Assembly (NCBI GenBank): GCA_050084515.1
Contig: CM114271.1
Coordinates: 34,844,001-34,908,000 of the forward strand
DNA from: Blasia pusilla
Taxonomy: Eukaryota
DNA: 64,000 bases
Direction of reading: 5' to 3'
This document shows, piece by piece, positions 32,482 to 58,685 of the stretch. Numbering within the stretch: position 1 is the first letter of the stretch; each line of letters begins with the position of its first letter. The translations under genes were made by a program, and so were the position numbers. The notes under the pieces were generated by a model. It searched no databases. It worked only from the letters and a program-made list of their open reading frames with translations, and was not told the origin of the DNA.

Positions 32482-35400
32482 TTTTCTTTAAATATATATA
32501 TCCATTTTATTATAAAATAAACTTTAAAAGAAGACAAAGAAAGATAATAATATCTCAAAAGGGGAGTTAAAAAAAGCATAAAAGAATGCAAAAAAGAAAA
32601 TGGCAATTAGTCAACACAAACATCGACTCAACGAGCTACACGATTGATAGTCGGAAACAAATCTGACAAGAACACGAATGGTTGGTCAGACGTGAATGGA
32701 CGACGAGGCGAGCGACCCCCCACCACCTCCGCACGACGTATCAATGCCAATGCTTGTGCACGTTTTAAGGCTAATGAGATGCATTGCTGAAAATAAGTAG
32801 TAACTACAAAGAGAGAAGGACTACGGGAAGGGGCAAGGTGATGATTCTCGAGGGCGTGGTGAGCACATGTTTTCAAGAAAGTATGAAAGGACACATGTAA
32901 ATGACCGAATACTTCCATTGCAAAAGGAATAAATCCATCAATCGCATGTCTCACAACATAACTTAACTCCTTGATTCTTGCTGCACCTTCGGCCGCCAAA
33001 CCTTTGGTATGTGCGGCTTGACACACCAAGTCAGAACGTGTTGGATCCGCAACCACCACATCACCTAGTGTCCGGAATCCACCTCGAGACATAACAAGAT
33101 CCATTCTCTGATGAGAGGTTGCTTGTGTGGTTGAAGGTAGGACATGGAGTTGCTCTTGCCCAACGATGTATCCTGCAGTACGAGCCACCAATGCTACCGC
33201 CTCTCTAATGATATCATGTGTGGCCGTTCGTTCTCCACCATGTGCACATCGGAGAATATGGATACCCTTCGCATCAATGGGATCCCTGCATACAGAATTC
33301 GGCACACCTAACAGAGAAGGATAGGAAAGTCCAAGACGAAACCGCAAAGTTGTCGAGAATATACTTCGAGGAAGACGAAATGGAAGAATAAGAGGATTTG
33401 CAGTAAGCCACGCCCCCGCTTCGGTACCCGCACATGAACGCAGACGAGCTCGATGAGCGTCAGAGGATGCCTCGGAGAGAATGCTGAAAAAGTTGATTTG
33501 ATGCAGATTCTCATAGATATGCTCTTAAAGTCGTTCAAGCCCTTCCGTAATCAATTGACTGAAAGGGGGTAGAATTGCTTGTGTAGAAAGAGGAAGAAGA
33601 GCTCGTGCAGATCTAAGTTATTGCTGAAATAACAAGTCCCCCTCCTCTACATGGGCGATATAATCCATCAAGATAGGTGCATCTCCTTGGAGAAACCTTG
33701 AAGCCATAATCGGTGCTACCAACGCCCAACTCCCCAAAAAGGCTGCGGGAGCAAATGCGATTGTGAAGGACATTCCCACCCCTCCAAAAGAAATAGGCAA
33801 GATAGCTTCTCGTGAAGCAAAGACACCATCCTCTCCCTGAAAGGTATTCGGGCCAAGAAGTTGATCAAAAGTTGCCAAGATAGAAGCATCAAAAGAGGCC
33901 AACTGATGTAAGAACCTTGAAGTGGGAGGACAAGTGCGAAGAAGGTAGGAATGACGTCGTAGAAAATATTGGGAGAGAATCCCATAAGTCACTTGGGGAT
34001 CCCTTGGATGAGGTAACAAATGAAGCCATTCCACGTCTTTCAAAAGGGCCTCATCCAATAACTTTGAGACATAGTCGATGAAGCCAATTGGGACCCCAAG
34101 AACTCTAACCCCTTCAATGTAGATGGGAAAATCAGGAGAAGGTGGGATGAATGTTGAGGGAAGGCATGAAGGAGGCCATACTCCACATTTACTAGGTTGG
34201 ACTTTAAGATTTAAGAAAGAGAGTTGCTCCACGAAATGGGTATAAGTAGGACCCACTTCAGAAGCAGGACCTATAATGTGAGTGTCATCAACAATAGAAG
34301 GGAAAAGACAAGCTGGAAATTCTTGCGCTGATTCTAGAAGGGCACAAAAGTGGGTAATGGCAAAGAGTGGGCCACCCATGGGATCACCTTGACGTGTGCC
34401 ACAAGCCGATTGTAGAATACTCTATTCTCCGGAAGTAGCATGATGGGAATAGTTAATGGGCGTATCATAGGCATAGGAGGAGCGAACAAATGGAATGAGG
34501 CTCGCAAGTTGTCCTCCTGCACAATGTAACTCCTCAAAGATGGTTGCACGAGAAACTGAATTGAATGCGTTAGCCACAGCAACTTGAATTGCTACCTAAT
34601 CTGGATGAATATCAAGAGTGGAGCGAATCCCATGCACCATAGCCTCACACCCTCAAGGAGTTTCCACTCCAAATTGATGAGGAAATAAGTGGGCACTAAA
34701 GTGAGGAAGAAATTGCAAGCATAGGGATCGACTAACCAAGCGGTATAAAACCTCTCCAATAGCCAAAGGGCGCACATCTAAAGGAGGCTTATCGATAGCC
34801 AACAAACGACAAGCCCCTAAGAGCCTAGAGATAGAGAATGGAAGACAACTTGCCGCCATATGTGCATACACCTTATATAGAGATACAAAGCCACTTGTTG
34901 AATCTTCCGGGATAAAACAATCGCGGAGATGCTCAAAAACCATCCTTGATAGCCCGCTTGCTGATAAGCGAGGAGTATGCAGAAAAGCCCTTGTGAAAAC
35001 CTCCAAGTCAAGGTCCATTGTATAGTGTTCCACAAAAGGTGGAGCATTGCCACTTGAAGGAGGGTGAAGAGCTTCTAAGAGAGCCACTGTTTCCACACTT
35101 GGAACTGCCGGAAAAGAGGACCCAATGCTCCAGCTGCACGTGAAAACTCACCAACCTGCCCCAAAAGTAGACTTCGTTGAAGGCGTTGTTGTATTGATGG
35201 CCTCCCATTATTGGCATGTTGAGAGGAATGAGCCGCAGCTAAGGCCTCTGCTCAAAGTACATGCTCATTTTGAAGATTTTCCCAATCTCTAGACATAAGG
35301 CATTGAATACGTGTGGAGGTTTCACGATGACCCGTCGCACCACCCCTTGGAGGAAGGACTAAAACCCATTGTGGGAAGAGTAATAGGAGATACCAAGCAT

Positions 35401-36647
35401 TGATTTCTAGGGAATCACGCGCTAACCTTTCTAATGGGAAAAGCAAAGCTTGTTGGGTGATGGAGTAAAGAGCAATAGGAATGCAAGTGTAGAGTCTAGG
35501 ACGAGGAAGACTTGGATGGAAAGAGCGAAGGAGATCAATTTGGCTTAACCATGTCCAAGATGTTGTTGTGGGGAGTGCAGTAAGAGGTGGTATCGGGTTA
35601 GGGATTGAAGGCCCATGCATGGATCGACAGTACCGCCAATGTCTTTTGATCCCATTAGGAGCAAACTCCTTACCACAAGGTATGCAACGAACCTTTGGTA
35701 CAAATGGAGAAGTAGAAGGGTTACAAGGAGAGGGAGTGGGAGGTGCAAGAGGTGGTGATGGACGACGATGAGGGGGTAAGTAGGTTGGGGAAGGAGGAGG
35801 AGGAAGAGGGGATATTCGGGTAGAATAGATAGGAGTTGGAAGCAAGGGCATAGATGAGATATGTGGGGATGGAAAAATAGAAGGATTCTGTAATAATGGA
35901 TCAAGATTAGGCTCAATAGGACAAGACAAAGAGGGGAGAAGAGGAGAATCCGAAAGAAATGCAACGAGTGTAATGGGTGTATTAGCATCTGGAGGAAAAT
36001 GGCGAGATCTATGATGAGGAGGTGAACCAGGGGGAGATGTTACGGCTATAGGAGGGCGTGTAAAACCAGATAAGCGAGTAGATGGAGAATCCAACTCCAT
36101 CTCTGATGACATAGAAGCAAAGGTAGACAAGGGAAGACATGTGAAACGTGGCTTGGAGAAAGCTTGAGGATAACGAGGAAACAGTGGCTCTCTTAGGCGA
36201 TACCGAATTTATGATTGAAAGTGACTATAAGAAAAATATATAAACCAATTGAAAAGGAAAAGTGATCTATATGGTGTCAGAAGAGATGGCTCAAGAATAT
36301 GAATTTCTAATGTTCTTAAGGAGATGGAAAATGTACGCAGGGGCGAAACAGTAAGGTAAGGAGTTGAAAGAACAAGGAAGACTTTTGAGAGGAATTCACC
36401 TAAAACAAACCTGTACACGAAAATAGGCGCCTAGAGAGAAGGAAGAAAAACTAGAAAACCTATTTGATATGAAAAGAACGAGCTCGGCAAGGTGATCGAA
36501 ACAAGCCAAACACGTCCAAAATTAACACTCCATAAAAAAATTATGAAAGAAATAGGAAACACCAAAAAAGAGGATGTGAGGAGTAAGTGAGCCACCCACC
36601 AATGATTGCTATGAGGGAATGAGTTCATAATGTTGGGTCCAGCCCGT
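32482..36647 (-). mobile_element. Degenerate non-LTR retrotransposon with RT and C-terminal restriction-like endonuclease (RLE; CRE-like)
   Basis: N-terminal Pro-rich region with zinc finger CIPCGKEF..IKRHWRYC (35252-36130). RT motifs RPLAIGEVLYRLVSR, PHQFGV, NAFNSVSR, QGDPMGGPLF, IVDD and VLGVPIG. RLE motifs HILRCAHGGERTATHD, RMDL, DVVV, KELSY and FIPFAMEVFG (32628-33347). Several frameshifts and stops. AATAAA on the minus strand at 32506-32511 is followed by an AT-rich tail. Confidence 0.85.
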
Positions 36648-37922
36648 TGTCATGTCGAGAGTCTTTCTTTGAGCAAGGGCGGGCCTTCTAGCTGCGGTCG
36701 ATGCGGTCGATGCAAGGTGAACTCTCTAATAAGTTCTCCTTTTTCAATACAAAATTATGATGTACACTCTCCATTCTCTCACGACAGGTATCACAAATGG
36801 AAATGTCGAGACGATCACTTCTTCGTAACATCAGACCCCAAAATTCCTAACTATAAAATCTCTATAAACTATTTTACGCTTGTACACGAGGAAGATAGCA
36901 CAACTAGTGTTAAACCCTACTTGAGCAGGCCTATTGACATCCATGGATCGCTATATAAGGACATACAAAGTACAATCCCATGTCCTTCCATATGTGACGA
37001 TAGGAAGGATCACCGGAGTTGGAGATTGCATGACCCGATTCATGAACGCCTCCCCAAAGTGATAAACTAAATACCGAGTGAACCAGTGCCTATCTACAAA
37101 GAGTACCTTGACATGGTATGGATTGAGGAAAGGAAAGTCCGGCACAACTCTTGCTCCACCCCTATCCATGCTTGACAGACATTCTTTTCTCTCCTCAAGA
37201 ATGGATTTTGGCGGAATTATTCTCCCAAGAGGGGTAATCCACTCTCATGGGGGAAGTAACAAGCCAAAACATTCACTATTTTAGTATGACTAAACTCCTC
37301 TAAGGTGACAAACCTCTCATCTCCACACACACACACACCACACTCTAGAAACCTCTCGAAGAATAGACCATGATCAAGTTACTCTCCCAAGAGGGGTGAT
37401 CCACTCTCATTGGAAGAGTAAGCAATCCCAAAGCCATACACTCAAGAGAGACACGAGAGACTCAAGATGTGGAATAGAAGGTGATGAACCCTTGAAGGTC
37501 CCTCCTCTTTATATACTCACAAGGGATCCACAAGAGTACGAAATAGAGCTTATCTTATCTTGTGCCACATGGATTCCTCTCAAGACTTAGCCAATCACAT
37601 TTTGACACAAGTAGATTTCCTCTTATCTCATCCAAAATATCCTCTTTTACCCACATGATATTTTCCAAATTACCCCAACTAACCTAGCCACCAACCAAGA
37701 CTATTTTTGCTTTTCATTAAAGCAACTACTTTACTTTTATAAAGTCATTTTTTTATTTATTACCTCCTTTTCTAAAGTTGGGCCCGTATAAAAGAGGCAC
37801 CATAAAGAGGTTTAAACATAAGAATTTCCTTTTTCTAAGCCAATTTATTTAATACTAATGAAACTCTATCTAACACTTAATGACGAAGGAATTTACATAT
37901 TGGTTGATTTTACTATACGATA
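36648..37922 (-). repeat. 3' LTR of Gypsy family A (~1.27 kb)
   Basis: Termini are TGTCAT...ACGATA. It is highly similar to 59376-60647. A minus-strand polypurine tract GGTTAGGAGGGGGTGAA lies immediately adjacent at 37923-37939. Confidence 0.88.
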
Positions 37923-38015: not shown

Positions 38016-40965
38016 TCAATCGAAATCAAGAAATCCTTCACGTCTATGGAAAATCTTGACCCTTTTTCCTGCAATGGGCAGCTTGAGAATCGTGCCATCT
38101 AGTTCACGTAGTTTGTAAGTGGCATTGTCAAAAGCAAAGACTACAAGGTATGGACCAAACCAACGACGTGCAAACTTCTTAATTGTACTATGCTGGTTGT
38201 TGAGGCTGTTGTCGTGCACCAAGACCCAATCTCCTTCTCTTATCGGCTCCTTCCGAAGTCGATGAGTTTTGTCAAAGCGCTCCTTATTTTTCAACCTTGC
38301 TTCCTTCATTTTGACTAAAGCTTCTGTAATATCTTCTTCCCGCCGCTCTAGCTAATGCATTCGAAGTGCTAAGAGCTCTTCCCTATCGAGCCCGTCTTCC
38401 CACGGCAAACCCATCCAAGTGGGTATATCTCCTTCTGCTGGCATAATCGGCTTTTGACCTGTCATCAACTCTGTAGGCATGAACCCTGTAACGGTGCTGT
38501 GAGTGGTTCTATCAGCCCATAAAGCAAATGGAAGTAATCTAGGCCAATGAGCATAACGATCTCCACACGCCTTTACCAATGCTTGAATGATTAGTGGATG
38601 TCCCCTTTCGCTCTTGCCGTTTGCCTCCAGATTCATGGAGGTTGTTAATCTCAATTGGACTCCATATCTCTTGAAGAACTCTCGTGCTTCCTCCGCATTC
38701 AACTCACCTCTATCTGCACGGATTCTCCCGACACTCCCATATCGAGCAACAAAAATCCTCTAGAATAAAATGACATATAGGCTCTGTTGTTTTAGCCCGT
38801 AAAGCCCTTCCTTCTACAAAGTTGGACAACTCTTCTCGTGCTAGGACCAGGTAACGCATTCCCCAAAGACCTAGTGGCATAGCAACTAGATCTATAACCC
38901 ATTGATGATGAAGAGACAAAGGATACGTGGGTTTAAGTCCATCTCTCACCCTGATTTTTGATTGAAACTGACATTCAACACACGACCCAACATATCTCTC
39001 AACATCCTTATATAGGCCTTTCCACCAATACCTCTCTTTTATCTTGGTGAAAGTTGCCCAAGTACCTCTGTGACCTGCCCATAAAGAATTGTGGAATTCT
39101 TTGAGCACTTGCATTTTTGTCCCATTGTCATCCACCACCCTCAAGGGCATTCCATCTTTCCTCTTTGGCCTTTTCCAAAGATACCCATCTTGTAGTAGAT
39201 AACCATACGCCTTATGCCGAATCTCCTCGAAGAACTTGTCTGTCCATCCTCCGTCTCTTTGCAGAGTGCTTAAATAGCGCCCAATTTCTTTTAACCTACC
39301 CTCATACAAATTCTCTTTGAAGGCTAGGACATCCTCTATGCCACCTCGTTCTTGAGATAACACTTGCCACACATGTACATCATCCTCATCTATCTCAATT
39401 TCCTCCATATCTTCTTCTTGACTAAATCTAGCTCTAGACAACATGTCAGCTACTGAGTTCTCTTTCCCAGCTATATGCTTCAATTGTGGATTCAAGGACC
39501 TAATGTAGGCTATCCAACGTAGCATGGCTATATCTGGAATCGTACAATTCGCAATCATACCCAACAGAGGTAGACAATCAACCTCAAGCAATACATAGGC
39601 TCCCATAAGATACTCCTTCTCAGCTTTCATTGCAGTTACAACTCCCCAAAGCTCCCTCTTTACCTGAGGATACCTCCTTTGTCGTTCCGTGAGTGTACGA
39701 GCTCCAAACCTTGTTGCAAATCTTCTTCCTTCCGCGTCATCCTGCCCAACTGCCCACCCGATAGCAATAAGGCTAATGTCCACTGTGATGATAATAGGTC
39801 TTCCGCATTTGTAGCTCATTTGTCGTAGAACTGGTGGCAACTTCAATGCCTCCTTCAACTGCATCATTGGTGCTCTTTGCTTCTTCTCCCAAGTGAACTT
39901 CTTCTTCTTTCTCAACAACTCATACAAAGGATCAGATATGTGGCCAAAATGAGGAATCCACACTTGATAGAACACACAAGCTCCTAAAAACCTTCTCACT
40001 TCGGTGACGTTTTCGCATTCTCGTATCCTCCCAATGACATCAACTTTTGCTGGATCTCGTTTTTGGCCAAAATCTCCACAAAGATGATCCACTACCACAA
40101 TTTGAGGAACCCCAAAGCTACACTTTTCTCCAGAAAGAGTAAGATTGACCTCTTCTAGTCTTGTTAGGATCATATCCACATCACGAATATGATCAGACAC
40201 AAACTTTCTACACCCATATTTCACAACCCTCTCAATCCTATCTTCTATAGCACACCCCTTTATAGGAATATCATCTACAAAAGGAATGGTTTTCTCAGGA
40301 ATGAACTCTCTCAAGATCTTATTCATTGCACTCTGCATGTGAGCGACAGAATTTGTTGCTCCTTGAGGTAATGTGCACATTATTACAAGCCCAAGTGGAG
40401 TGCCCATAGTGGTAATATCTCTACTCTCTGTAGCTAAATGGAATTGATCATATCCCGAGTGCAAATCTCCTATAGAATAGATAGCACGGGTTGCAAAAGC
40501 TTCTGCGACTTCATCTATTCTAAGCCCCGCTCCCATATTTCGAATGGTTACCTTATTTGCCGATTGCATATCTTGAATGATCCCGAGAGCTCCTGATTTC
40601 TTCGGCACAATGAACCATCGACTCGAGTAAGGCCCCATAGATGGCTCTAAGATACCCATCTGCATCTTCTCCTTCAATAACTCAATCAGCTTGGGAATCA
40701 TAGCTCGTGGTACTGGTATGGGTTTCAAATCCCAAGGTGCATGCGGAACTGTGAAAATTACCATCGGTGCTACCACACTCGTGTCTACACAACCAATTTC
40801 TTGTGTAGTAAAAGAGAAAGCCTGACCATGTCTCCTTAACATCTCCCGAAAGCTTTTTCTTTCAATTTCTGTGAGAAACTCATCCCCTCCGATTTGCAAA
40901 CGATCTAGTGTCTCTTCTGTGAACTTGTGTCCTATCTTCTTGACATCCCGCAGACTTGGCTCCAT
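38016..40965 (-). mobile_element. Ty3/Gypsy family A pol (RT-RNaseH-integrase), 5'-truncated, with frameshift and stop in the integrase
   Basis: 751-aa ORF with LPQGATNS, FVDD, VRRFLG, RRYPQVKRELWGV, NSVADMLSR and HNSLWAGH..CVEC. Downstream ORFs carry NGKSER, ALWADRTT and RRWFGPY. Domain order is RT-RH-IN. gag and PR are missing because the sequence switches to a family B LTR at ~40990. Confidence 0.92.
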
Positions 40966-43900
40966 TGATGCACCTTCTACTTATCTCCAATAAAGTAAGA
41001 TCCAATCTCTCTCTCTATACCATCTCACAACACAGCTCTCAAAGGTGTGCACTCTCTCTTATGTCAAACCAAACCCACTCTCCTAATGAGAGGCTTGGGT
41101 TACACTCACAAGGCAAGGGACCATAGCTCCGCCGCCTTATGCCAAGAGGTTCAACAAAGAGAGAAGGAGCTCTCAAGCTCTCTCTCTCTCTCTCTCTCTC
41201 TTGGAAGTATACCCCCCTTCCCTCTCCCAAGACCTCTCAACGATAACCTATGCTCGTAGGTCACCTCCTTGGCTCTTGACCTGATGTAGCGGGTCAAGGG
41301 CCACTTCCCAAAGTGGAAAGTCAACTATCCCAACATGGAAACTTACCGAAATAGTAAGTTTCTCTATATGGCTCCAAATGAGTCGAAACGAAGGGGAAAC
41401 CTGCTCTCTCAAGTTTCCCGGGGCCTCAACAGGTCATCCTCAACCTCTTGGGCCTATCCTCCACTACTCGTGCAGACGCTCTGCTAGATCCCACCGATCT
41501 ATCCTAACAGTCGTGACAACTATCGTGCGCATACACATCGCTGTCATCGAACACATACACAAACACATACGATGCCATGCTAACTCATGGCATCCATACA
41601 AAGAGGCGAGAAGTACCAAAATATCTCCAATCGCCCCCTTAGCTGGTGGTTAGGTTCCTCTAACTCCCAATAGCCATCTATCCCTACCTACCATGACATA
41701 CATCTCTAAGACGCTAAGACCAAAAAGGTCGGGTGCTCATGTGGCCCCATCGTTAGTCGCCTTCCTGTCATCCATGTCACAAAAAAATTCGGAATTGAAA
41801 CCTACCTAGTATCTCCTCTATGTACATCTGGGACACATCCATCGTCCTCGAGGAACCCCAGTGAGAGATGGCGTCAGGCATGCCATATGCCAACCTCTCG
41901 AACATCCATCACCAGCATCGTGGCCGCACTACGAGCAGAACCACACAGCATACAGCGCAAGCCTGCAGGAACTACTGTTGAGCTCGGATCTATTGTACCA
42001 TCAATATTAGGAAGGTGACATGATGCACAATTATGCACATGGTCCTTCCATACCATACCATCGCGTCCCTCTGGCAATCGCCAAGTTCTCGAAAGCCATG
42101 GGCATCACTCTCCGAAACAACTCAGCCCTCTGAGAACGTGCTTGCATCCATACATCTAGGTCATCAAGGTCCAGCACCTCACCAACATCTCGACAAATGG
42201 CCGTAGGTAAATCTGGCTCTCGGCCATAAAGTAGCAAGTACGGTGAAAAAGACGCTAAGGATGCCTGCTTGCTGACTTTGTATCCCATCGCCAACCACGA
42301 CAACTGGAGGTCCCAATCTCCTAGCTGACCTCTCTGTAAGCCATACTTGCGTAAACCCCTCTTCACCGTCTGCACAACTCTCTCCGCTAATCCATCCGCC
42401 TCAGGACGATCTCGCAAAGTCGGGCGGTGGTCAATCAGCGCCTGATCACACAAGGCTTGGAACTCACCGCAAAACTCCGTACCCTGGTCTGTCAACACCT
42501 CAGCCGATGCACCATAATGACTCAGTACTCTGTTAAGGAAGGCATAAGCTACTCCCTCACTCGCTTTGTCAGAAAATCAACCAACTCAATCTACTTTGAG
42601 AAGTGCTCGACCATCACCAACACATAACGACTGTGACGCTCCGTAAAAGGCAAAGGTCCTGCAAAATCCAAACTCCATCTATACCCTAAGCCCATGATCA
42701 GTAATGGATGCAACTTTGGAGTCGGAGCATTGAACGATGCTCGGACCCGATCACACACCATGCACCTAGCAACAAACTGTTGAACGTCAGTCTGCATGCC
42801 TCGCCATCAATACTGAATCTGGAGCAAGCTGTACGTCCGCTTCACCCCAAAGTGACCCAACTCCTCGTAGGCATGGTGCACTAGTCGTACTCTCTGCTAG
42901 GGATGTAGCACTACGCGTACTCTACCATCCTCCCAAACCCTCAAAACATGTGTCCCCTCCCAATGGAACTGTCTGGCCCGCTATAGGATCCGATCCCGCT
43001 CTCTAGCACCCACGGTGCTCACAACACTGCCAGTACGAAGGTACTCCAAGACTACTCCATCATCATGAATATCTCAGCCACCTGTTGTCTCCTCATTAGC
43101 CTCGGGATCCAAGGACTCTCCACTAGACCTCGCCATCAAAGTCTCCACACTCTGGCTCTCCATAGCCAACATGCCTAAATAGGTTGACGCGTGCCATCCT
43201 GACACTGACTTCTCATCACTCTCTCCATGCCATCGAGCTCCAGTCGCATCTCATTGACTCAAGCATGGGTTACGACTCAACCCATCTGCATCTTGGTTGA
43301 ACGTCCTAGGTCTATGTACCACATGAAAATCATACTCCTGCAACAACAGAGCCTATCTCGCAAGCTTCCCTCTAAGCTTTTCGGACTCCATCAACCACTT
43401 CAGTGGTTGATGACCAGTAATGATGGTAAAGGGATTGCCGAATAAGTAACACCTGAAATGCGCGACAATCCACACTGTTGCCAAGCACTCACCCTCATAC
43501 GAGATGTACTTTGCCTTTGCAGAGTTGTTCGAGCGGCTAGCATAAGCCACCACAAACTCTCTACTCTCATCATCATACTGGGTGAGCACCGCTCCAAGCC
43601 CTAACATGCTCCAATCAGTGTGCGACTGGAAAGGACGCCCCCTGATCGGCCTCCTCAAGATGCGCGCGGACGTCAATCTATCCTTGAGCAACTGAAATGC
43701 TCGCTCTTGCTCATCCCCCTAGTGCCGCTTGTGATCCACCTTGGTCAGCAAGGTTAGCGGCTTCGCAATCAAACTGAATCCCTTGACGTACCGCCAATAG
43801 AAGTTTGCCAATCCCATGAATGGGCAAACACGACTCACATCTGTAGGGCGTGGAATGCATGAGATAGCCTCTACCTTCGTCTACTGAATACCAAGGCTCC

Positions 43901-45049
43901 TTGGGTATTTCGTATGACCCAAATACTCAATCTGGTCATAGAAGAACTTGCACTTGCCTGGATATAGCTTCAGCCCATGTAATTGCAATCATCGAAACAC
44001 CTCCTCTAGATGTCGCTCATGCTCCTTAACCGTGGCGCTAAAGACTATGATGTCATCAATATAACACCTAGCAAAATCCAGACTTGCCAAGATCCTATCC
44101 GTGACCCTTTGAAACTCAACCGAGGTGTTCTTTAACCCAAATGGTAAGAACCGCCACTTGTACAAACAATCCTTCCCGTGAGGATCGATGCCCCTAAATG
44201 TTGTCTTCTGCCTATCCTCCAATCTGATAGGCATCTGATGGGATCCAACTTGCAAATCCAATGAATTGAAGACCTTTGCATGACCAATTGCATCAAAGAT
44301 CTCCTCAAGGGAGGGCATGGCATACCTCTCGGACTTCATCTGCCGATTGATAGGTCGGTAATCCCCACACATCCGCCTATCCGTCCAATTGCCATGCACA
44401 TCCTTCTTGGTGGGCATGACATTGGTAGATGCATACTCCCCATACGACCCTCTCCACTAGTCCTGCTCCGACCAAGTCCTGGCTCCTACTCTGAATCAGA
44501 GCCCTCTCCATATCACTATACCTATAGGGTCGTCGGAAGATCAGCGTATGACTCGACAACTCAATGCGGATCCCTGGTCCTTTCAGCGTACCCAATTCCT
44601 CCATGCTAAATGCAAATCAGCTCATATAACTCCTGAGGAACTAATGTATCCGGCGCCGCTCTCCTCCTGTCAACTTAGGGCCCATATCTGGCTCCAAAGT
44701 CTCCATCGTGACTACAGTAGGACTCTCTGGCGCGGGTATTGGTGGTTGCTATGGTGCAAACCTGTCTCAAACAACAACACTTGGCCGCTCTCCTGCAACT
44801 AATTGCAAACTTTGATCTCCTCCACGTGCAGTGCTCGGAACCATGCTCGATGTTGTGGCTATCATCTCTTGGCATACGTGCAAAACATCCCAAGAAGTCC
44901 AAGGGTGTCCCTCCCAATCTCCCCTGGTGTGTAGATCTCCTCGGGTCTCACCCCCAGCAGCTGCCTCCACCGTCTCGGTAGGCATGGGGCTCACCAACGC
45001 AACCGCTGTGATCTGTCGTGATCTCATACGGCGCTGCTCAACCACTCCC

Positions 45050-46000
45050 AAATTGAGGATCCATGTCAAGCAGTTTAGGTCCATGGCTTGACCCAAGACA
45101 TGGCGTCGTGATGCCTCTGACGATAGTGATGGTACTACCGTCACTCTTGTGGGAAATCCCATCGCTCGCTCTGTCTCGTTGGCGTTGGGCTCCACCAACA
45201 GTTGAACCTGGTCATCCGAAACCAAGCTAGGGCTGGCCTTCTTTTATGCATAGGAAGCGGGAAAACTCACAAATGTGGGCAAGGCTGCCCGCGTATGCCA
45301 ACACTGTTGACCACAGTCAACAGTGTTCGATCATCGTGCCTCACTAAGTGTGATCGACAACTTGGATCCAGAATGGAATCCACTAACAAATGGGAGGGGC
45401 GCTCCACTCTCGGATACGCCCTCTGTAACACCGCATGGGCCACCAAGTTGGTCCACCATAAACGTGGGCGATGGGCTCTAGAACCTATCCTCGCCGCATC
45501 CAAAAATATTTTTTGGCCGATCTAGGCACAAACTTGATGAGCACTTGTCACTACCCGTGACCTGGAGTCTCCTAAGATCGGCACATTCTCCAGAATGTAG
45601 GTTGGAGAATGAGATTGGTGCTCCTGCAACTGCCGTAAGACCCTCAACATCTCCCAAAACAACCTGGACCGAGTGTCAGCCAACCCGCTGCCTCATCCAA
45701 CACTCGATTGGCCCTGACATGGCCAACCGGAAATGACCAAAATAATGGTCTCTACCCGCTCTAAGTCCTACGCCCCCAGCAACAAAATATCCCTCGGTAG
45801 GGAACTTTGGTACCCCTGTACCGCGGACGCAGACAATAAGTTGGGAAAACGGAGGCATAACTGCGCCACATGTCATAGTGAGACACGCCTCGCAACATCA
45901 TTACTCTCCACATATAAGTATTGTTGTACTCGCACTGTTGCCTGCAAAACAAGAGCTAACTCGGTGCTAATTCTTCCAAAGAGATCTAACACTCGAATAC
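45050..46000 (-). pseudogene. DNMT3-like C5-cytosine DNA methyltransferase domain inside the pol of family B copy 1
   Basis: Motif I IRVLDLFGRIST, motif II YVE, motif IV LVISGWPCQGQS (catalytic PC at 45717-45722), motif VI YILENV (45582-45590), motif VIII AHRPRLWWTNL, motifs IX/X ETERAMGFP..SRRHVLGQAMDL. Interrupted by stops and frameshifts. Confidence 0.9.
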
Positions 46001-46787
46001 CCTCCTCCGAGGTACACCACACAATGGGTGTGGTATCCAAGGGTGTCATCATAGCACTCCTTGCTACCTTGGGTTCCTGAGACCCGTCACGCTCCGATGC
46101 AAATGCCTCGCTCCACGCGGTCAACACGTGCTCATCTGCCAATTGTCGAAGCTCCTTAGTCGAGCCCCACAGCGGCACCTCTCCTCCACGGAATGATGTA
46201 GCTACCATAACACTCCTCTCCATAGAAATGTCAGGAATGGCAGTATCCTCTGCATGGACATGTCCCTCAATCAAATCACTAGGCCAAGTGATGGCACTAC
46301 TAAATGCTGCTAAGGTCGTCATCTTTCCTGGCTCTTGCTCGATCACTGCACCTGTGAATCGAACGGATAATGAGCTAAGGCGCCCATCACCTGACTCCCA
46401 TCCTGGTCTGTAGGATGTTGACTCCTCCCAGTAATCCACAGAAAATCCCATCGGGTATAACACTGCTCCACCAACCAAGACGTCGAAGGACTCTTCATCA
46501 GTCAATATCGCCTTGGCTCGCACCACGGACTCATCTATAGGATATCCCGGGTGAATCCTCACCATGACCTCATGTCGGGAGATATACTGTGTGGTACTCG
46601 CTCCACCCAAGGATGTATGTATCCGGAATGGACAACGCTCCACATCGACTCTCGTCAAGCCCAACTCTCTAAATGACGCTTTCCCCAACATCAGGGGTTG
46701 CGCTCTTCAATCCAACAAGACGCGCTGCGGACTAAAAGCTCTACCTCCAGGACTCACCAAGTGGAAGACCTCTCCTCGGTTATCCAA

Positions 46788-47433
46788 CAACACAACTCCA
46801 AGAGAAGCCATGGCATGCTCTATCGCGGGTCTAGCGGGCATCTCCGCCATCCTTGCAGTCGCAGCCTGCCATGAATCTCACGTGGACGCCCCGAGCATCC
46901 GCTCCAAGGGCAGGTCCATCACCTCCTCTACAATCAACTCTAAATGTGATGCAGGAACTCCAACTCTACGCTCACATAGTGAAGCGACCACCAAAAAAAG
47001 CCTCGACGGCGCTACCCCCAACGTCATAACATCAGAAGCAGAAAATAAAGGAGTGCGGTACACAACGATGGCCGCCCCAAAGAACGTGCTTGACACATGC
47101 CCCTCATGAGCAACACAACTCCAAGAGAAGCCATGGCATGCTCTATCGCGGGTCTAGCGGGCATCTCCGCCATCCTTGCAGCCGCAGCCTGCCATGAATC
47201 TCACGTGGACGCCCCGAGCATCCGCTCCAAGGGCAGGTCCATCACCTCCTCTGCAATCAACTCTAAATGTGATGCAGGAACTCCAACTCTACGCTCACAT
47301 AGTGAAGCAGCCAGCCAAAAAGCCTCGACGGGCGTACCCCCCAACGTCATAACATCAGAAGCAGAAAATAAAGGAGTGCGGTACACAACGATGGCCGCCC
47401 CAAAGAACGTGCTTGACACATGCCCCTCATGAG
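46788..47433. repeat. 323-bp tandem duplication in the gag-protease region of family B copy 1
   Basis: caacacaactccaagagaagccatgg...gacacatgcccctcatgag occurs at 46788-47110 and 47111-47433. The ORF track shows near-identical ORFs. Copy 2 has only one unit. Confidence 0.92.
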
Positions 47434-50400
47434 CATAAACAAAGGAGTCGTCGCACTCGCTTCTCCCATCGCCCTCCGTGCCTGCACACCAACAACATCA
47501 CTAACTCTCCAGGAACTTTGATGAGGACCCATCGATGGGGTCGTCATTGCTTCGGACAACGTGAAAGACTAAGGAAGCCTAGTCTCTTTTCTGGCTTCCC
47601 CTCGCTATGGATCCAACTCTGCGGCTACTCCACCCATCACAATTGCGGCGGCCTCCATCTGGGAAACCGTGCACATCCAACAAGGATCCTCCATATCTCT
47701 GGCTGCTCCATATGATGTCGATGCCACGGATCCGACATCAGGTAACCTCAATGCCATAGCGGCAATCTGCTCATGTAGCTGTTGTATCTGAGCAGCCATC
47801 CTAGCCTCACGTCCGACGTCTCCCTCGGCGCGTCTAGGTGGTGGTACTCTATCTCCTCCACGGGCAGCTCCACCACCCTATCGAGCAACTCTAGCTCCTT
47901 GTCCCCCAACGGGACCACCTGGTGCACGATCTCTAGGCTCATCCCGACCGGCTACTCACTTTGGTGCCCTCTCTGGCCCTCGGTCCGGACGTAACTCAGG
48001 ATGTAAATTGAAACACATGGCGTGTGTATCACCATACCTCTAACAATAGTCACACAGATAACCTCCTGGTGCAGCACCATCTCCTCCTCCATGGTTGAGG
48101 CACACGTCCATAACCCCAAGGAGTGCAATCGCGCTGATGATGGGCTCCACCACATGACCAAAAAGTAATAGTAGGCGGCTGCTATTGAGCCGCATATGAA
48201 GGCGCACGTCTCTGTGGAACCGCCTCCTGGTATCCTCCTTGAGCTCATGGTGCCATTGTCGACCAATCTTGGAGTCCACGTTGCTACACAAGTGGTGCAG
48301 CCAATCGTGACTACTCTCGCCCAGAACCCATGGTGGCTATGCTCTCCTCCGCCATGTTGCACTCAATATTCTTCCTAAAAACATCTCTCAACGTAGGGGA
48401 GGTGTTCATAAGAAGCACCCCCTCCCGCACCCGTGTCCACAGGGTCAAGTCCAGCATTGCGTACCATGATTGGATAGCCTAAGCCTCTATCACCCCCTAA
48501 GAGACGTTGATCAACCGGCGCAAGCGAGTGTAAGCTTCACGCAAAATCTCACCTGGGCGCCTCTGGAAGTCGTGGCTACTCTCCAACTTCTTCGTCCGTA
48601 CCCCTTGGTAGCTCGCCCTCAACTCGGCAAAGAACTCAACCACAGGGTTGAACTTGGGACGAACCAAACAAGACGGTACAACTGCTCTAGTGCAAGTGAC
48701 CCCTCCTAAAATATCACTAGTGGAAGAGGAAGTAGCCTCTCCTAACTCCTCCTCCTCATCTGGGAACGGATCCGTCCATGACACATAATATGGGTCATAG
48801 TAGAGCCTCCACGTCTCGATCTCACCTGCATATCTCTAAGAGAACTCATGGTAATCGTCCATGGGCACCCCCTCTAAATGCTAGAACATACCGTTCCATG
48901 CTGTTAACGGGTTAAACTCTCTAGAGTTCCTAGCCCGCTGGGAGTCGCACGAACTCCTAAGCCCTGCTATGAAATCATGCAACTCAATCGTGCCTACGGC
49001 ACCTAAAAATCTACGCGGTCCTCTACCCCGATCATCCATCTCGTACGCCCAACTGGTAGGACCACTCACAATGTGTGGCGATGTGCTCACAAACTCCTCT
49101 ACACCCTCCCCCTTGTCTGACGATGAAACAGTAGGAGGTCGAGGTGGAGATCCTCAGAACCTCGCGCCACTCCGCGTAAAACCTCCAGAGCTACTCTCGG
49201 GTTCACCACCTTGCCTCTCAAAGTCCCGAACGGACGCCGTGATGACCCCGTGCCCCTCTCACCCGATCACTCTCAACCTCGCAAGTAATCCCTCAATCAC
49301 TCATCCCAAACATGCGGCACTCGATCTACACTCTCCTTCCCCGAGACGTGTAACGTGTAGCAACACGCGGCGTGGTGCGGCAAATCGACCAAGGCTATCA
49401 TCTCATCGCCAACCTACCCTAAACTCCGGACATCCCACACAGGTCTATGTCCCCTAAACCACATACATGAATGATGCTCTCAGCATCCACACAACCCAAT
49501 ATCCCCAAATAAACTACCCAAATCCCATAATCCCTCACACGTGCAGAGTAAAGGACCAGAATGGGTAACTTGAACATATTTTGGTGTCGCTCCTCAAAAA
49601 ATAAAAATCTCGACCCCAACTCGGTCGTGAAGATAACTTTTCTAATCAGCAAGTCGTACTCCTCTCGTACTGACGCTGCTCAACCTCCTTGATGTGCAGT
49701 GCGGGTCGAGCGGTCGGGTGTGGCATTGGCGGCATGGAACGGCTAAAAACAGCGCGGCACTCAGGAATAGGGGGCGGCACTCGGCGGCATACCCTCCTCA
49801 ATCAGCAATTCACACGCTCTGCTCCTTAGTGAAGGAGCGATTGCGCGATCGAGACAGTGAGGTGCGGCCACGAGCGGCACGGCGCAGCAATCGGCGACAC
49901 ATTGTGGCTACGGGCGTCACGGCACGGTTCTCGATCATTGTCAAGCGGCTAGCAATCACAACAAAGCAACATGAAATCAAAACTCAAACACCATAACCGG
50001 AGGTCATGTGCCATCACTAGTTGATGACGACACTGCGATGACGATGGCGGCCAAAACAAAGTACATGGTGGCGAAGCAAGTAAGAGAATCAACGAACGTC
50101 GTGGAAGACCCTCCACTCGGTAATGGCGGCAATGGAAACGGACGGTGGACCATTGACGGTGATGGTTGACCATCTATGGTAGACCGTTGACGATGACTAT
50201 GACGGAGACGGCTGGTTTAGGGTTTGAACAATTTAACTCCAAAAATCACCTAGCAATGGCAATTTTGCAAGATTGATCATAACTTTTTGCTTGCAACTCC
50301 AAATTGCACACTATTTATTGCACAACGTGCACAGCATCATGATCTACAATAGCATTAAAAAATATTTAGAATCAAACATTTTTGTAAAAACTGACGGGGA

Positions 50401-51939
50401 CTGTCGTAAAGCCCAATGTCTCTTTCTCCTACACAAAATTTGGCAGCGCTTCCGCGCTGATTTTCCCCAACAAAAATATAAAACCTTTAAAAATACAAAT
50501 CATCAAGCTATATGGTGCTCCCAAGAGCGCCGACATGGGGCAGTCCGCCCCCATAATCAATCCCTATCAGAAATTGGGCAACACTTCCGTGCCACACTCT
50601 TCCACACAAAAAATCGGCAAATGCAAAGAACAATCAAAGCAACCCTTGCTCCGGTGAGCACTCCCATGAGCCGCTGAATGGGGAACACGATCCCCAACCT
50701 GCAAAAAAAGCGAGTGACCAGTGAGTTTCCCCTTGAAGCTCTCTCACTCTCTCATTTCTCTCTTTGTAAAGTAAAATCCAATCTCTCTCTACACCATCTC
50801 ACACCCTAGCTCTCAAAGGTGTGCACTCTCTCTCATGTCAAACCAAACCCACTTTCCTAATAAGAGGCTTGGGTTACACTCACAAGGAGAGGGACCATAG
50901 CTCTACCGCCTTATGCCAAGAGGTTCAACAAAGAGAGAATGAGCTCTCAAGCTCTCTCTCTCTCTTGGAAGTATACCCCGTTCCCTCTCCCAAGCCCTCT
51001 GAACAGTAACCTATGCTCGTAGGTCACCTCCTTGGCTCTTGACCTACTCTAGCGGGTCAAGGGTCACTTCCCAAAGTAGAAAGTCAACTATCCCCAACAT
51101 GGAAACTTACTAAAATAATAAGTTTCTTTATATGACTCCAAATGAGCCAAACGAAGGGGAAACCTTCTCTCTCAAGTTTCTCGGGGCCTCAACAGGTCCT
51201 CCTCGACCTCCAAGGCTTGTTTTCCACTTCTCGTGCAGCCGCTTTGCTAGATCCCACTGATCTATCCTAATAGTCGTGACAAGGTTCAACAAAGAGAGAA
51301 TGAGCTCTCAAGCTCTCTCTGCTTGAGGTATATCCTTCTCTTCTCCCAAGCTCTCTCCATGGTAACCTTTGCTCCCAAGTCACCTCCGTGGCTCTTGACC
51401 TCATCTAGAAGGTCAAGGTCAACTTACCAAAAATATAAAGTTGATCATATACTCAAATGGTACTAACCTAAAATAGCAAATTCCTCAATATGACTCCAAA
51501 TGAGCCGAAATGAAGGGGAAACCTGCTCTCTCACATTTTCCGGGGCCTCAATAGATCATCCTTGACCTACTGAGCCTTTCCTCCACTACTCACAAAAGTG
51601 CTCTACTAGATCTCATCAATCTATCCTAAAAGATGTGACAGTTGTCGTGCGCATACACATCGCTACACAACATACATCATTGTCACCGAACACACACAAA
51701 CATGCACGATCCCATGCTAATTCATGCCATCCAAACAACGAAACAAGAAGTACCAAAATATCTCCAATTACCCTCCTAGTTGGTGGTTAGGTCCCTCTAA
51801 CTCCAGATAGCTATCTATCCCTATCTACCATGACATACATCTCTCAGACGCTAAGAGCAAGAAGATCGGGTGCTCATGTTGCCCCATCGTTAGTCGCCTT
51901 CTTGTCATCCATGTCACAGACACAAGTCGTAATGTAGAA

Positions 51940-52095
51940 CTACCTACTCTCTGTACATCTGGGACACATCCATCGTCCTTGAGGAACCCTAGTGAGAGGT
52001 GGCGTCAAACATGCCATATGCCATCCTCTCGAACACCCATCACATACTAGCATAGTGGTTGCACCACAGGCGGAACCACACAACATACACCGCAA
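51940..52095 (-). pseudogene. PHD finger at the C-terminus of the family B integrase (copy 2)
   Basis: CMLCGSACGATTMLVCDGCSRGWHMACLTPPLTRVPQGRWMCPRC has the C4HC3 PHD pattern. A frameshifted homolog lies at ~41820-41960 and a remnant at ~63430-63515. Confidence 0.92.
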
Positions 52096-55000
52096 GCATG
52101 CAAGAACTATTGCTAAGCTCAGATCAACTATATCGTCAATTTTTGGAAGATGACATGGCACACAATTATGCACATGGTCCTTCCAAACCATAACATCGTG
52201 TCCCTCCAAGAAGAGAACACCGGATGGCGAAACCTCACGCACTCTCAAGATGGTGCGCCTTGTAGTCATATCCAACGTCGTGGATGCCGTCTGCTGCAAG
52301 TAGATATAGTCTCCTTGATGAAACCTCCGGATAGTAGGTCGATAACCACCTCCTCAAATAGTCGCATACCTCAACGTATCCCGATGTTGCGCAATCGCCA
52401 AGTTTTCAAACGCCTTGGGCATCACTCTCCAAAACAACTCAACCCTCTGAGATTATGCTCACATCCATACATCAGGGTCATCAAGGTTCAACACCTTACC
52501 AACATCTTGACGAATGGCCGCTGGTAAATCTGGTTGTTGGCCATAAAGCAACAAGTACGGTGAGAAAGATGCTAAGGATGCCTGCCTGCTAAATCTTTAT
52601 CCCATCGCCAACCACGGCAACTGAAGGTCCCAATCTCCTAGGTGACCTCTCTGCAAGCCATACTTGCATAGTCCTCTCTTCATCGTCTGCACGACCCGCT
52701 CCACTAGTCCATCCACCTCAGGATGATCTCACGAAGTAGTGCGGTGGTCGATCATTGCCTGATCATACAAGGTCTGAAACTCCCCATGGAACTCTGTACC
52801 CTGGTGTGTCAACAGCTCAGCTAGTGCACCGTAATGACTTAGCACTTGATCTAGGAAGGCATACGCTACTCCCTCACTCGCTTTGTCAGGCAATGCAACC
52901 AACTCTATCCACTTCGAGAAGTGCTAGACCATCACCAACACATAACAACTATGGCGCTCCGTCAAAGGCAAAGGTCCTGCAAAATCCAAACTCCATCTAT
53001 AATCTAAACCCATGATCGCAAGTGGATGGAGCTGTGGAGTTGGAGCATTAAACAATGCTCAGACTCGATCACATACCATGCATTTGGAAACAAAGTGCTG
53101 AACGTCAGTCTACATGCCTCCCCACTCCAATACTGAATCTGGAGCAAGGTGTACGTCTGCTTCACTCCAAAATGATCCAACTCCTTGTGGGCATGACGCA
53201 CCAAACATGCTCTCTACGAAGGATGAGGCACTACATGCACTCTACCATCCTCCCACACTCGCAACATATGTGTTCCCTTCCACCAGAACCGTCTGGCTTG
53301 CTGTAGGATCCCATCCTGCTCTCTAGCACCCACTCTACTCGCGACGCTGCAAATACGCCGGTACTCCAAGACCACTCCATCATTTTGAATGTCTCGGCCA
53401 CCTGTCATCTCCTCACCCGCCTCTGGATCTAAGGACTCTCCATCAGACCTCGCCATCGAAGTCTCAAAAATTTGGCTCTCCATAGCTAACAAGCCCAAAT
53501 AGGCTTACGCATGCCATCTTGGCACCAACTCCTCATCACTCTCACCATGCTAATGAGCTCCAGTCGCATCTCGTTGACTCGAGCATGGGTTATGGCTCAA
53601 ACCATCTACATTGTGGTTGAGCATCCTAGGTCTATGCACCACCTGGAAGTCATACTCCTGCAACAAAAGAGCCCACCTCGCAAGCTTCCCTGTAAGCTTT
53701 TCGGACTCCATCAATCACTTAAGTGGCTAATGATCACTAATGATGGTAAAGGGATTGCCGAATAGATAACATCTAAAATGTACGACACCCCACAGTATAG
53801 CCAAGCACTCACCCTCATACGAGCTATACTTCACCTTTGCAGCGTTGTTGGAGCGACTAGCGTAAGCCACCACAAACTCTCTACCATCATCGTCATGCTA
53901 GGTGAGCACCGCTCCAAGCCCCAACATGCTCTAATCGTTACGCAATTGGAAAGGACGCCCCCCGATCGGTCTCCTCAATATGGGCACGGACGTCAATCTG
54001 TCCTTGAGCATCTAAAATGCTCTCTCTTGCTAATCCCCCCAATGCCACTCCTGATCCACTTTGGTCATCAAGGTTAGTGGCTTCGCAATCGAACTGAAAC
54101 TCTTGACGTACCGTCGATAAAAGTTTGCCAATCCCATGAATGCACGAACTCGACTCACATGTGTAGGGCGTGGAATGTTTGAAATAGCCTCTACCTTTGT
54201 CTATTGCACACTAAGGCCCCCTGGATATATCGTATGACCCAAGTACTCAATCTGGTCGTAGAAGAACTTGCACTTGCCTAGATGTAGCTTCAACCCATAT
54301 AACTGCAATCGTCGAAACACCTCCTCTAGATGTCGCTCATGCTCCTCAACCGTGGCGCTAAAGACTACAATGTCATCAATATAACATCTAGCAAAATCCA
54401 AACCTGGCAAGATCCTATCCATGACCCTCTGAAACTCAACCAGGGCATTCTTTAACCCGAATGGTAAGAACCGCCACGGGTACAAACAATCCTTGCCGTA
54501 AGGATCGAAGCCCCAAAATGCCGTCTTCTGCCTGTCCTCCAATTTGATAGGCATCTAATGGTATCCGACTCACAAATCCAATGAATTGAAGACCTTCGCA
54601 TGCCCAATCACATCAAAGATCTCTTGAGGGGTGGGCATGGCATACCTATCGGACTTTGTCTGCCAATTGATAGGTCGATAATCTCCATACATCCGCATAT
54701 CTGTCTAGTTGCCATGCACATCCTTCTTGGCGGGCATGACAATGGCACATGCATACTCTCCATGCGACATCTCCACTAGTCCTGCTCCAACCAAGTCATG
54801 GCTTCTACTTTGAATCAGAGCCCTATCCATGTCATTGTACCTGTAGGGTCCTCAGAAGATTGGCGTGTCACTTGACAATTCAATGCGGATCCCTGGACCC
54901 TTCAGGGTACCCAAATCATGCATACTAAATGCAAAAAAGCTCCTATAACTCCTAAGGAATTGGTGTATCCGACGCGCTCTCCTGCTGTCAACTTAGGGCC

Positions 55001-55339
55001 CATATCTGCCTCCCAAGTCTCCATCGTGACTACGGTAGGACTCTCCAGCGCAGATGTCGGTGGTTGCTATGGTGCAACCTCGTCTCGGACAATAGAACTC
55101 TCATCTCCATGTGCAGTACTCGGAACCACGCTCAATGTTGTGGCTATCATCTCTTGGCGTTCCTGCAAAACATCCCAAGAAGTCCAAGGATGTCTCTCCC
55201 GATCACCCCTAGTGTGTCGATCTCCTTGGTTCTCGCCCCGGCCCCAGCCACTGCCTCAACCATCTCGGTAGGCATGGGGCTCACCAACGCAGCACCTGTG
55301 ATCTATCGTATTCTCAAATGACGTTGCTAAACTATTCCT

Positions 55340-58634: not shown

Positions 58635-58685
58635 ACTCGCACTAGAGCAGTTGCAACTAGACGATGCAACTGCTCTAGTGCGAGT
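58635..58685. repeat. Perfect 21-bp inverted repeat with a 9-nt spacer, preceded by a 13-bp direct duplication
   Basis: actcgcactagagcagttgca / tgcaactgctctagtgcgagt, with aaccatggggttg x2 at 58608-58633. Confidence 0.9.

Follow-up and report, generated by a model that had tools for sequence, protein, structure and literature searches.

The presence of a DNA cytosine methyltransferase inside a Ty3/gypsy retrotransposon raises the question of why the element keeps such an enzyme and what it does there. Cytosine methylation is the main weapon of the host against transposons, which makes a transposon with its own de novo methyltransferase paradoxical. The only case described from the plant lineage comes from a charophyte alga, in which the element has few copies and its enzyme was without activity in the single assay tried. 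Here, we analyze a 64,000-nucleotide stretch of the genome of the liverwort Blasia pusilla (GenBank assembly GCA_050084515.1, contig CM114271.1, positions 34,844,001 to 34,908,000), which we call the window and to which all coordinates below refer. Stop-to-stop open reading frames (ORFs), six-frame translation and self-comparison place two head-to-tail homologous retroelements on its minus strand, copy A (~40982-51282) and copy B (~51282-61887). These two old, inactivated elements very probably represent the 'Gypsy-DNMT3' retrotransposon lineage in a liverwort and have a DNMT3-like methyltransferase (MTase) between protease and reverse transcriptase (RT).

The methyltransferase domain and its place in the element

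In copy A, a minus-strand ORF of 277 amino acids (45873-46706) continues from the protease region into MTase motif I (EEGIRVLDLFGRISTE) in the same frame, just as the preliminary description of this locus had stated. The C5-MTase motifs that it had reported also read in canonical order in the six-frame translation (SGWPCQGQ, ILENVP, RAHRPRLWW, ERAMGFP and LGQAMD), giving an MTase pseudogene at 45034-46052 with ordered motifs I, IV, VI, VIII, IX and X, in which motif I has become LFGRIS (Gly to Arg). This segment is 57-59% identical to the MTase of L001, a nearly intact relative described below. RT follows soon after, as had been proposed, its Pfam domain beginning ~600 bp past motif X and pre-RT homology starting at 44715. 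Copy B carries the same domain in one frame (55336-56334); it keeps motif I, and its motif IV is degraded to AEWSCLGQ, with SCL at the catalytic site. Read through with X at the stops, copy B matches PF00145 with 24.1 bits against a gathering score of 22 (E 2.8e-5), and the domain scores 49.0 bits in L001 and 35-45 bits in gene models from Marchantia. The separate short ORFs of copy A gave no Pfam match for the MTase, so that these scores come only from the copy B read-through and the intact relatives, which stood in for a frameshift-corrected consensus.

Judged from sequence and predicted fold, the domain is a DNMT3-like C5 cytosine methyltransferase, the closest solved relatives of which are DNMT3A, DNMT3B and DNMT3C. 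The best sequence match of copy B in the Protein Data Bank (PDB) is DNMT3A (phmmer E 1e-8), and a profile of 17 family members found DNMT3A at 5e-16, DNMT3C at 9e-14 and DNMT3B at 1e-13, followed by DRM at 1.8e-7 to 5e-5 and by DNMT2 and M.HhaI at ~1e-4; DNMT1 was not listed for this profile at E <= 0.01, and closeness to DNMT3 is judged here among solved structures only. An AlphaFold model of the L001 MTase (438 amino acids; mean predicted local distance difference test score 60.9, predicted template modeling (TM) score 0.67) retrieved only DNMT3A, DNMT3B and DNMT3C among the best 50 listed Foldseek matches (E 1e-14), with TM scores by target of 0.69-0.74 against isolated catalytic-domain chains and lower values against longer chains. 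Chance resemblance to an MTase is excluded because PF00145 lies above its cutoff in copy B and reaches 49 bits in L001, and because the family profile matches DNMT3A at 5e-16. In the family alignment, which yields an intact consensus, conservation of the Cys of PCQ, of ENV and of the R-x-R of motif VIII is complete or reaches at least 90%. The motifs follow the canonical order, unlike the rearranged one of DRM, and the interval between motifs VIII and IX is short, both of which are features in common with the mammalian DNMT3A/3B/3C enzymes that provide the best sequence and fold matches. Identity to those enzymes is only ~20-22%, however; motif IV, which is GSPCN in the DNMT3A alignment, reads GWPCQG in the element, and the element protein differs further in its accessory domains, as neither PWWP nor ADD was found by Pfam in L001 ORF1 and ORF2 or in the Marchantia models.

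The MTase is an integral part of an element that recurs across bryophytes. A protein search recovered 45 relatives of near full length and 15 longer ones, the named among them from Calypogeia fissa, Sphagnum spp., Marchantia polymorpha and M. paleacea, and tblastn showed the Marchantia, Sphagnum and other models to be colinear with both window copies. The Pfam order is CCHC, protease and MTase in model P0059, and MTase, RT and RNase H in the Marchantia model P0053; the complete domain set is that of Ty3/gypsy elements, with a CCHC gag and a protease followed by RT, RNase H and, last, integrase. A single scan of metagenome contigs added 38 loci of the family. Among these, L001 is nearly intact and encodes gag (two CCHC knuckles) with a protease (LDSGAQ), the MTase, and RT-RNase H-integrase in one frame with two single stops between them. 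The stop between its protease and MTase reflects decay, because it is absent from the other loci; the second is the subject of a later section. At locus L014, motif X is followed directly by the integrase C-terminal region and PHD finger (~10916 onward), with RT and RNase H lost, which by its sequence is an internally deleted or recombined copy. The central claim of the preliminary description, a Ty3/gypsy-type element with a DNMT3-like MTase between protease and RT, is thus upheld by Pfam, the PDB profile, Foldseek and the colinear relatives. Neither of the two outcomes that it had named as refuting was observed, since PF00145 scores significantly and the segment is in frame and carried by most members.

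Selection and abundance point in the same direction. The ratio of nonsynonymous to synonymous substitution rates (dN/dS; Nei-Gojobori, 304 MTase codons) is 0.15-0.17 between subfamilies, at a dS of ~1.7 that is near saturation, and 0.5-0.9 within one subfamily; this is the pattern expected if an active lineage is under purifying selection and its copies decay after insertion. To gauge abundance, ~1% of one genomic run of the same species was mapped at a likeness of at least 85%. Two host-gene bins had depths of 0.6x and 0x, and the copy A bins, summed, reached 784-2400x, with 1634x and 1265x over the MTase, 1975x over the protease and 2400x over RT, so that MTase depth is 53-83% of that of the flanking protease and RT bins. 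Because of this depth across bins, the family is very abundant and most of its members carry the MTase, the copy number being an order of magnitude only, as single-copy depth is below 1. In three stranded RNA runs, depth over the MTase bins was 31-81x for reads whose first mate maps to the plus strand and 0.1-8x for those of the opposite strand; a minus-strand host exon has the same strand sign, and these reads are therefore sense transcripts.

Both window copies are broken, and none of the short ORFs of copy A has a Pfam match individually, as might be seen if the MTase segment were a host DNMT3 pseudogene or a chance chimera between transposon fragments. This explanation is refuted by the same order and frame of domains in both copies, in the 38 metagenome loci and in gene models of four bryophyte genera, by the read depth relative to the flanks, by dN/dS well below 1 between subfamilies, and by agreement of the MTase and RT trees described below. 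The MTase is in frame and present family-wide, and the idea of a separate insertion has next to no probability left. That the MTase belongs to the element, with the identity and layout given here, is in our view highly probable.

Several observations weigh against the reading of these copies as remnants of an enzyme-bearing lineage. Both are pseudogenes, and they have in common a stop (LLLGA*DLERV, with the stop as an asterisk) and a Gly-to-Arg change in the protease D-S-G, which suggests from sequence that both may descend from an already defective source. The protease itself was assigned from the D-S-G motif and from a Pfam match below threshold; Asp_protease_2 is only marginal in P0059 (23.6 versus 24.3 bits), and a phmmer search of PDB with the L001 protease region gave no meaningful match. 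The L001 fold model has middling confidence and is poor at residues 225-284, where the target-recognition region is expected, and in the C-terminal tail. Finally, the RNA reads are mostly 85-95% like the window, which assigns them to other copies and does not imply that an intact one exists.

Spread, domain order and known systems

How far does this lineage extend? A profile search of 1.84 billion cluster representatives gave 413 matches at E <= 1e-30. The best 150 of the 413 all had E < 1e-59, many were polyproteins of 1000-3456 residues, and every protein with a readable domain order among these 150 was transposon-borne. Looking up 30 clusters named the chlorophytes Scenedesmus sp., Cymbomonas tetramitiformis, Haematococcus lacustris and Chromochloris zofingiensis and, from the Zygnematophyceae, Closterium spp.; Klebsormidium was found neither among the named matches nor among these 30 clusters. 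Pfam scans of six chlorophyte-type polyproteins gave the order RT, RNase H, integrase; in five of the six a PHD finger comes next, and in all of them the MTase lies between RNase H and integrase (by PF00145 in three and by profile match in the remainder). Such proteins, for example 'pol' of Scenedesmus sp. PABB004 (KAF8056149.1), therefore resemble the liverwort element in having a homologous MTase, the same type of RT, RNase H and integrase, and a PHD finger following the integrase, but differ in the position of the MTase, which in the liverwort element is between protease and RT.

Purpose-built hidden Markov models extended the comparison of domain order, placing the MTase after RT or before integrase in 94 proteins and before RT in 12, with the MTase alone in a further 117. 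In a FastTree phylogeny of 100 MTase domains, the 13 rows with the MTase before RT (the window, the loci, Marchantia, Calypogeia, Closterium and three unnamed proteins) form a single clade with a Shimodaira-Hasegawa-like support of 100; the tree needs one change of order, and none of 500 shuffles did as well. One change likewise suffices for the RT tree (47 rows), at a weaker support of 80. Since each tree needs one change, the MTase has coevolved with the element and has changed position once, in one direction or the other. On the favored reading, selection has kept the MTase within the element since before the split of land plants and Zygnematophyceae.

The terminal repeats also set the element apart. 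Two loci, L010 and L037, have split direct repeats in the order A1, coding region, B1, A2, B2, and L034 retains B1-A2-B2; a plain pair of direct long terminal repeats (LTRs) flanking an internal region is not the layout in L010, L037 or copy A. Copy A has A1 (516 bp, 50767-51282, minus strand), which is 88.7% identical to 40991-41519 and fits the A-coding-B-A-B arrangement of L010 and L037, followed beyond the coding region by a polypurine tract (41631-41640) and B1 (41520-41630), together 41520-41640 on the minus strand with the sequence aaccaccagctaagggggcga, and then by A2 (40991-41519) and a 9-nt B2 remnant (40982-40990), found by self-blastn and together spanning 40982-41519 on the minus strand. 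The B2 remnant is truncated by a neighboring element. A conserved polypurine tract (ACCACCAGCTAGGGGGGCG) lies immediately before B1 in L010 and L037, and the copy A tract matches it. DNA reads join 40991/40982 back to 41631/41621 (393 and 170 reads in the two best rows), from which it follows that in other members of the family A2 is continued by B2. Judged from two elements, the outer ends are TG..CA, with flanking AATC on both sides of L037 and with AACA and AATA, one base off, beside L010; neither window copy retains intact outer ends. The assignment to Ty3/gypsy in the preliminary description therefore holds for the domain set but not for a plain pair of LTRs.

An element of this kind is already in print. 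KnitGypsy-Dnmt3 of the charophyte alga Klebsormidium nitens combines Gypsy-type domains with the A-coding-B-A-B layout (de Mendoza et al. 2018, Fig. 4c legend; PMC5890265), the type has been named 'streptophyte Gypsy-DNMT3' in a 2026 preprint (10.64898/2026.05.21.726589), and DNMT3s embedded in streptophyte retrotransposons are mentioned in a 2025 paper. KnitGypsy-Dnmt3 and the liverwort element have in common the Gypsy-type domain set, a DNMT3-related, nonrearranged MTase in the polyprotein, the absence of introns, the DIRS-like A-coding-B-A-B repeats and Ka/Ks < 0.2 (PMC5890265). They differ in host, an alga rather than a land plant, and in copy number, which is low in K. nitens (PMC5890265) and very high here. 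The published main text gives no domain order, stop codon or PHD finger for KnitGypsy-Dnmt3 (PMC5890265), and kinship between the two is suggested by their architecture as described. SymbioDIRS-Dnmt3 of Symbiodinium, for which de novo CG methylation was shown in yeast, likewise has a DNMT3-type domain in a retrotransposon polyprotein and A-coding-B-A-B repeats (PMC5890265). It is, however, a DIRS element with a tyrosine recombinase, whereas the present family has a DDE integrase (rve, H2C2) and, as far as two elements show, TG..CA ends and 4-bp flanking repeats (at L037 and, imperfectly, at L010).

The preliminary description knew of no characterized land-plant family. A literature search that covered mainly the main texts of openly accessible papers indeed found no land-plant gypsy element with a DNMT and no readthrough in such a family, and a plant LTR classification paper (PMC6317226) makes no mention of methyltransferase, PHD or readthrough. 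Novelty is nevertheless lower than had been assumed, as the kind of element is known from KnitGypsy-Dnmt3 and gene models are annotated, though uncharacterized, in Marchantia, Calypogeia and Sphagnum; bryophyte copies may already stand in the supplementary trees of PMC12344493 and PMC5890265. What is new, as far as can be told, are the land-plant members and their abundance, the Gag-protease-MTase frame that ends at a conserved stop, and the single change of domain position.

The stop before reverse transcriptase and the possible role of the enzyme

The MTase is in frame with the protease, as proposed, but the continuous pol polyprotein that the preliminary description envisaged did not stand. 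In the intact relatives, as their sequences read, a long Gag-protease-MTase frame ends at a conserved UAG or UAA stop, and RT-RNase H-integrase-PHD follows in the same frame. Among 29 sequences with the downstream WEP..GPKL anchor (27 loci and both window copies), the stop occupies one and the same site in all 29, and RT continues in frame behind it. The codon is TAG in 18 and TAA in 11, and the next codon is CAA in 27 of the 29. After this CAA comes CCC in 20 sequences, CCA in 3, and CTA and CTC in 2 each. Both window copies (TAG at 44749-44751 between the MTase tail and RT in copy A, and at 55067-55069 in copy B, minus strand) and L001 read TAG CAA CCA, and L030 and L031 read UAG CAA CUA. 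The tobamovirus-type (type I) leaky stop of plant viruses is UAG CAR YYA. The likeness is complete in the window copies, L001, L030 and L031, and in both systems the downstream frame encodes a polymerase; most relatives of the element differ in reading CAA CCC, and 11 of the 29 have UAA.

We favor, with some reserve, a leaky or programmed stop. Two findings count against it. In 22 of the 27 CAA contexts, the following triplet is CCC or CTC and so lacks the final A of the type I motif, which is complete in only 5 of the 29, and relative cluster P0082 has MTase, RT and integrase in a single uninterrupted protein, so that the stop is not universal. The first of these, together with the fact that all sampled copies are to varying degrees genomic fossils, leaves some room for a stop that is not read through at all, in which case RT-RNase H-integrase would be made by reinitiation or from an RNA that is spliced or subgenomic, or else the stop would be no more than a mark of descent from one defective master. 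This we find possible but doubtful. The site is kept in three subfamilies whose MTases are only ~57-60% identical, RT is always in the same frame downstream, CAA is retained almost throughout, and the Marchantia models P0051 and P0052 terminate shortly past the MTase; a defective master, moreover, could not found subfamilies that were later under purifying selection.

With a leaky stop, Gag-protease-MTase would be the major translation product and the fusion to RT-integrase the minor one. The protease could then free the MTase inside the particle in Gag-like amounts, and the enzyme would methylate new cDNA in the particle or in the preintegration complex, such that a new copy would enter the genome with cytosine methylation already present. 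The PHD finger linked to the integrase might read histone tails for target choice. Self-methylation of cDNA was proposed in the 2018 paper (PMC5890265), and we adopt it tentatively as a role that is possible rather than probable.

The main targets of the MTase might instead be host DNA or family members already resident in the genome, in which case the enzyme would either dampen the family's own transcription as a form of copy-number control or provide CG methylation that shields the copies from other silencing. The family is hugely abundant and yet sense transcripts persist, and Gag-level synthesis would far exceed the enzyme needed for one cDNA. The window copies also carry the imprint of methylated DNA: their differences are transition-rich (transition/transversion ratio 2.0), 135 of 787 are CpG to TpG/CpA changes, and the CpG observed/expected ratio is 0.69-0.71 in both copies as against 0.95 in the nearby host gene region. 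CpG decay of this kind is, however, expected of any host-methylated plant transposon and is no pointer to the element's own enzyme. We regard this role as rather unlikely.

Still less likely is a noncatalytic, DNMT3L-like module that recruits or regulates host methyltransferases or binds chromatin. DNMT3L-type proteins have lost the catalytic residues that the family conserves almost without exception (the Cys of PCQ, ENV and R-x-R). Purifying selection would be equally compatible with a binding role, and a frame expressed at Gag level could suit a structural or stoichiometric one. The MTase domain of the K. nitens Gypsy element, in addition, gave no de novo methylation in yeast, a result that weighs against an active enzyme in our family as well and that its authors call inconclusive; the same assay left human DNMT3B inactive too, making it a weak negative (PMC5890265).

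Beyond the individual copy, the data may be drawn together as one ancient green-plant lineage of integrase-PHD gypsy elements with their own DNMT3-type enzyme. On the way to Zygnematophyceae and land plants, the enzyme would have left its place between RNase H and integrase a single time and joined the Gag-protease frame before a leaky stop, and so be made in capsid-like amounts; highly multiplied and transcribed in this liverwort, the family could add substantially to de novo methylation, that of its own cDNA and perhaps that of the host genome as well. As a whole this scenario is speculative and we think it doubtful that every part will hold. If it is true, transposon-encoded DNMT3 could contribute to de novo cytosine methylation in just this way, and since Marchantia polymorpha carries family members, the role of transposon-borne DNMTs could be put to the test in a genetic model plant. 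Elements of this kind occur in any case in both liverworts and Sphagnum and are annotated in M. polymorpha. Such elements can attain very high abundance and remain transcribed, and 'DNMT3 genes' in bryophyte genomes should be counted with caution.

Copies A and B and their surroundings

The window has a GC content of ~47%, and copies A and B are 84.3% identical across 5004 aligned bases. All parts of both lie on the minus strand. The gag of copy A (47989-49186) was delimited by tblastn with segments of L001 ORF1 and is colinear with Marchantia P0052; it includes a remnant of the CCHC zinc knuckle at ~47989-48054, where L001 and P0059 have zf-CCHC. Within the gag-protease linker of copy A is a 324-bp tandem duplication (46788-47112 and 47111-47435, 96.6% identity), of which copy B has a single unit. 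The putative aspartic protease (46431-46853) is 47% identical to the L001 segment with LDSGAQ, and its active site reads D-stop-R in place of D-S-G (VLLD*RAQPLML). Downstream of the MTase and the conserved stop, pre-RT and RT occupy 43875-44715 by tblastn with L001 segments (RVT_1 E 1.3e-15 on ORF 43989-44456), the RT domain itself spanning 44414-43875. RNase H follows at 43311-43754 (RT_RNaseH_2 E 2.8e-28, and tblastn), then the integrase at 42031-42944, with H2C2 zinc finger and rve core recognized from Integrase_H2C2 and rve fragments and by tblastn. A degenerate PHD finger after the integrase (41874-42010; ORF text LRCMLCGS..) is assigned by self-blastn homology to the PHD region of copy B and had no Pfam match of its own.

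In copy B, gag, protease and MTase share one frame from 58323 to 55231, as traced by tblastn with the models of relatives. Its putative protease (56719-57120, by tblastn) has the active site D-S-R in the text VLLDSRAQPLML. RT, RNase H and integrase lie at 52825-54734 (RVT_1 E 1.5e-21, and tblastn), and a PHD finger at 51955-52089 forms the C-terminal end of the pol frame (PF00628 E 6.5e-11 on ORF 51940-52353).

The MTase of copy A is broken by premature stops at 45873, 45768, 45693, 45522 and 45244 and, near 45294, by a 1-nt deletion; in copy B the stops lie at 56275, 56056 and 55327, the first two internal to the MTase domain. Many DNA reads are free of the frameshifts of copy A: 1216 of 1705 reads are without the 1-nt deletion at 42577 in the copy A integrase, 892 of 1155 lack the frameshift at 47442, and at 44450 copy A has one surplus base relative to copy B and many reads.

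At the junction of the two copies, a partial A2 of copy B (~373 bp) adjoins A1 of copy A, and 50921-51281 and 51282-51640 resemble a 360-bp tandem with 76.6% identity. A simple LTR-int-LTR-int-LTR tandem formed by unequal crossing-over was considered and rejected, as the 3' A repeat of copy B is cut at ~373 bp and is then followed by a complete A1 of copy A. The arrangement fits a nested insertion into an A repeat followed by deletion. Upstream of copy B, a third fragment of the 3' end of the MTase family lies in direct orientation at 62898-63524 (~66% identity to 41264-41909), adjoined by an inverted piece of the A repeat at 62596-62887 (region 62581-63524). From this arrangement, copy B may also be nested in the A repeat of an older copy, hinting at insertion into the family's own terminal repeats.

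The 5' region of copy B is interrupted by a foreign 1.27-kb repeat (~59378-60650, strand not assigned) that is absent from copy A and 91.5% identical to 36645-37920. This other site adjoins a neighboring gypsy element and has a DNA depth of ~900-1075x, and RNA reads start sharply at 37650-37673; the repeat is possibly the LTR of that neighboring family. A Ty3/gypsy element distinct from the MTase family occupies 38016-40980 on the minus strand, where an open frame of 756 amino acids encodes RT, RNase H and integrase H2C2; the 5' side of this element is truncated exactly where copy A ends. Its sense RNA (77-250x, against DNA at ~230x) gives the highest RNA/DNA ratio in the mapped stretch, which suggests that, copy for copy, its family is transcribed more actively than the DNMT one. 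Farther along, at 32628-36208, long minus-strand ORFs mark a non-LTR-like retroelement with a DNA depth of 330-630x and modest sense RNA, which deviates from its family majority at many positions.

Two host genes accompany these elements. At 9070-10017, the minus strand has an intronless, uninterrupted ORF of 316 amino acids for an LST8-like subunit of the TOR complex, which is 95% identical to Marchantia paleacea, 93% to Riccia sorocarpa (partial coverage) and 86% to the next best match, Amborella. These identities put the host with the liverworts, close to Marchantiopsida; the intronless form may be usual in this liverwort or may mark a retrocopy. Minus-strand exons of an AUX1/LAX-like amino acid/auxin permease gene span 26800-30930, with the ORF text WHGGSVYDAWF, which we take to be a motif of such permeases; its first bins have ~1-1.5x sense RNA depth in two of the three runs.

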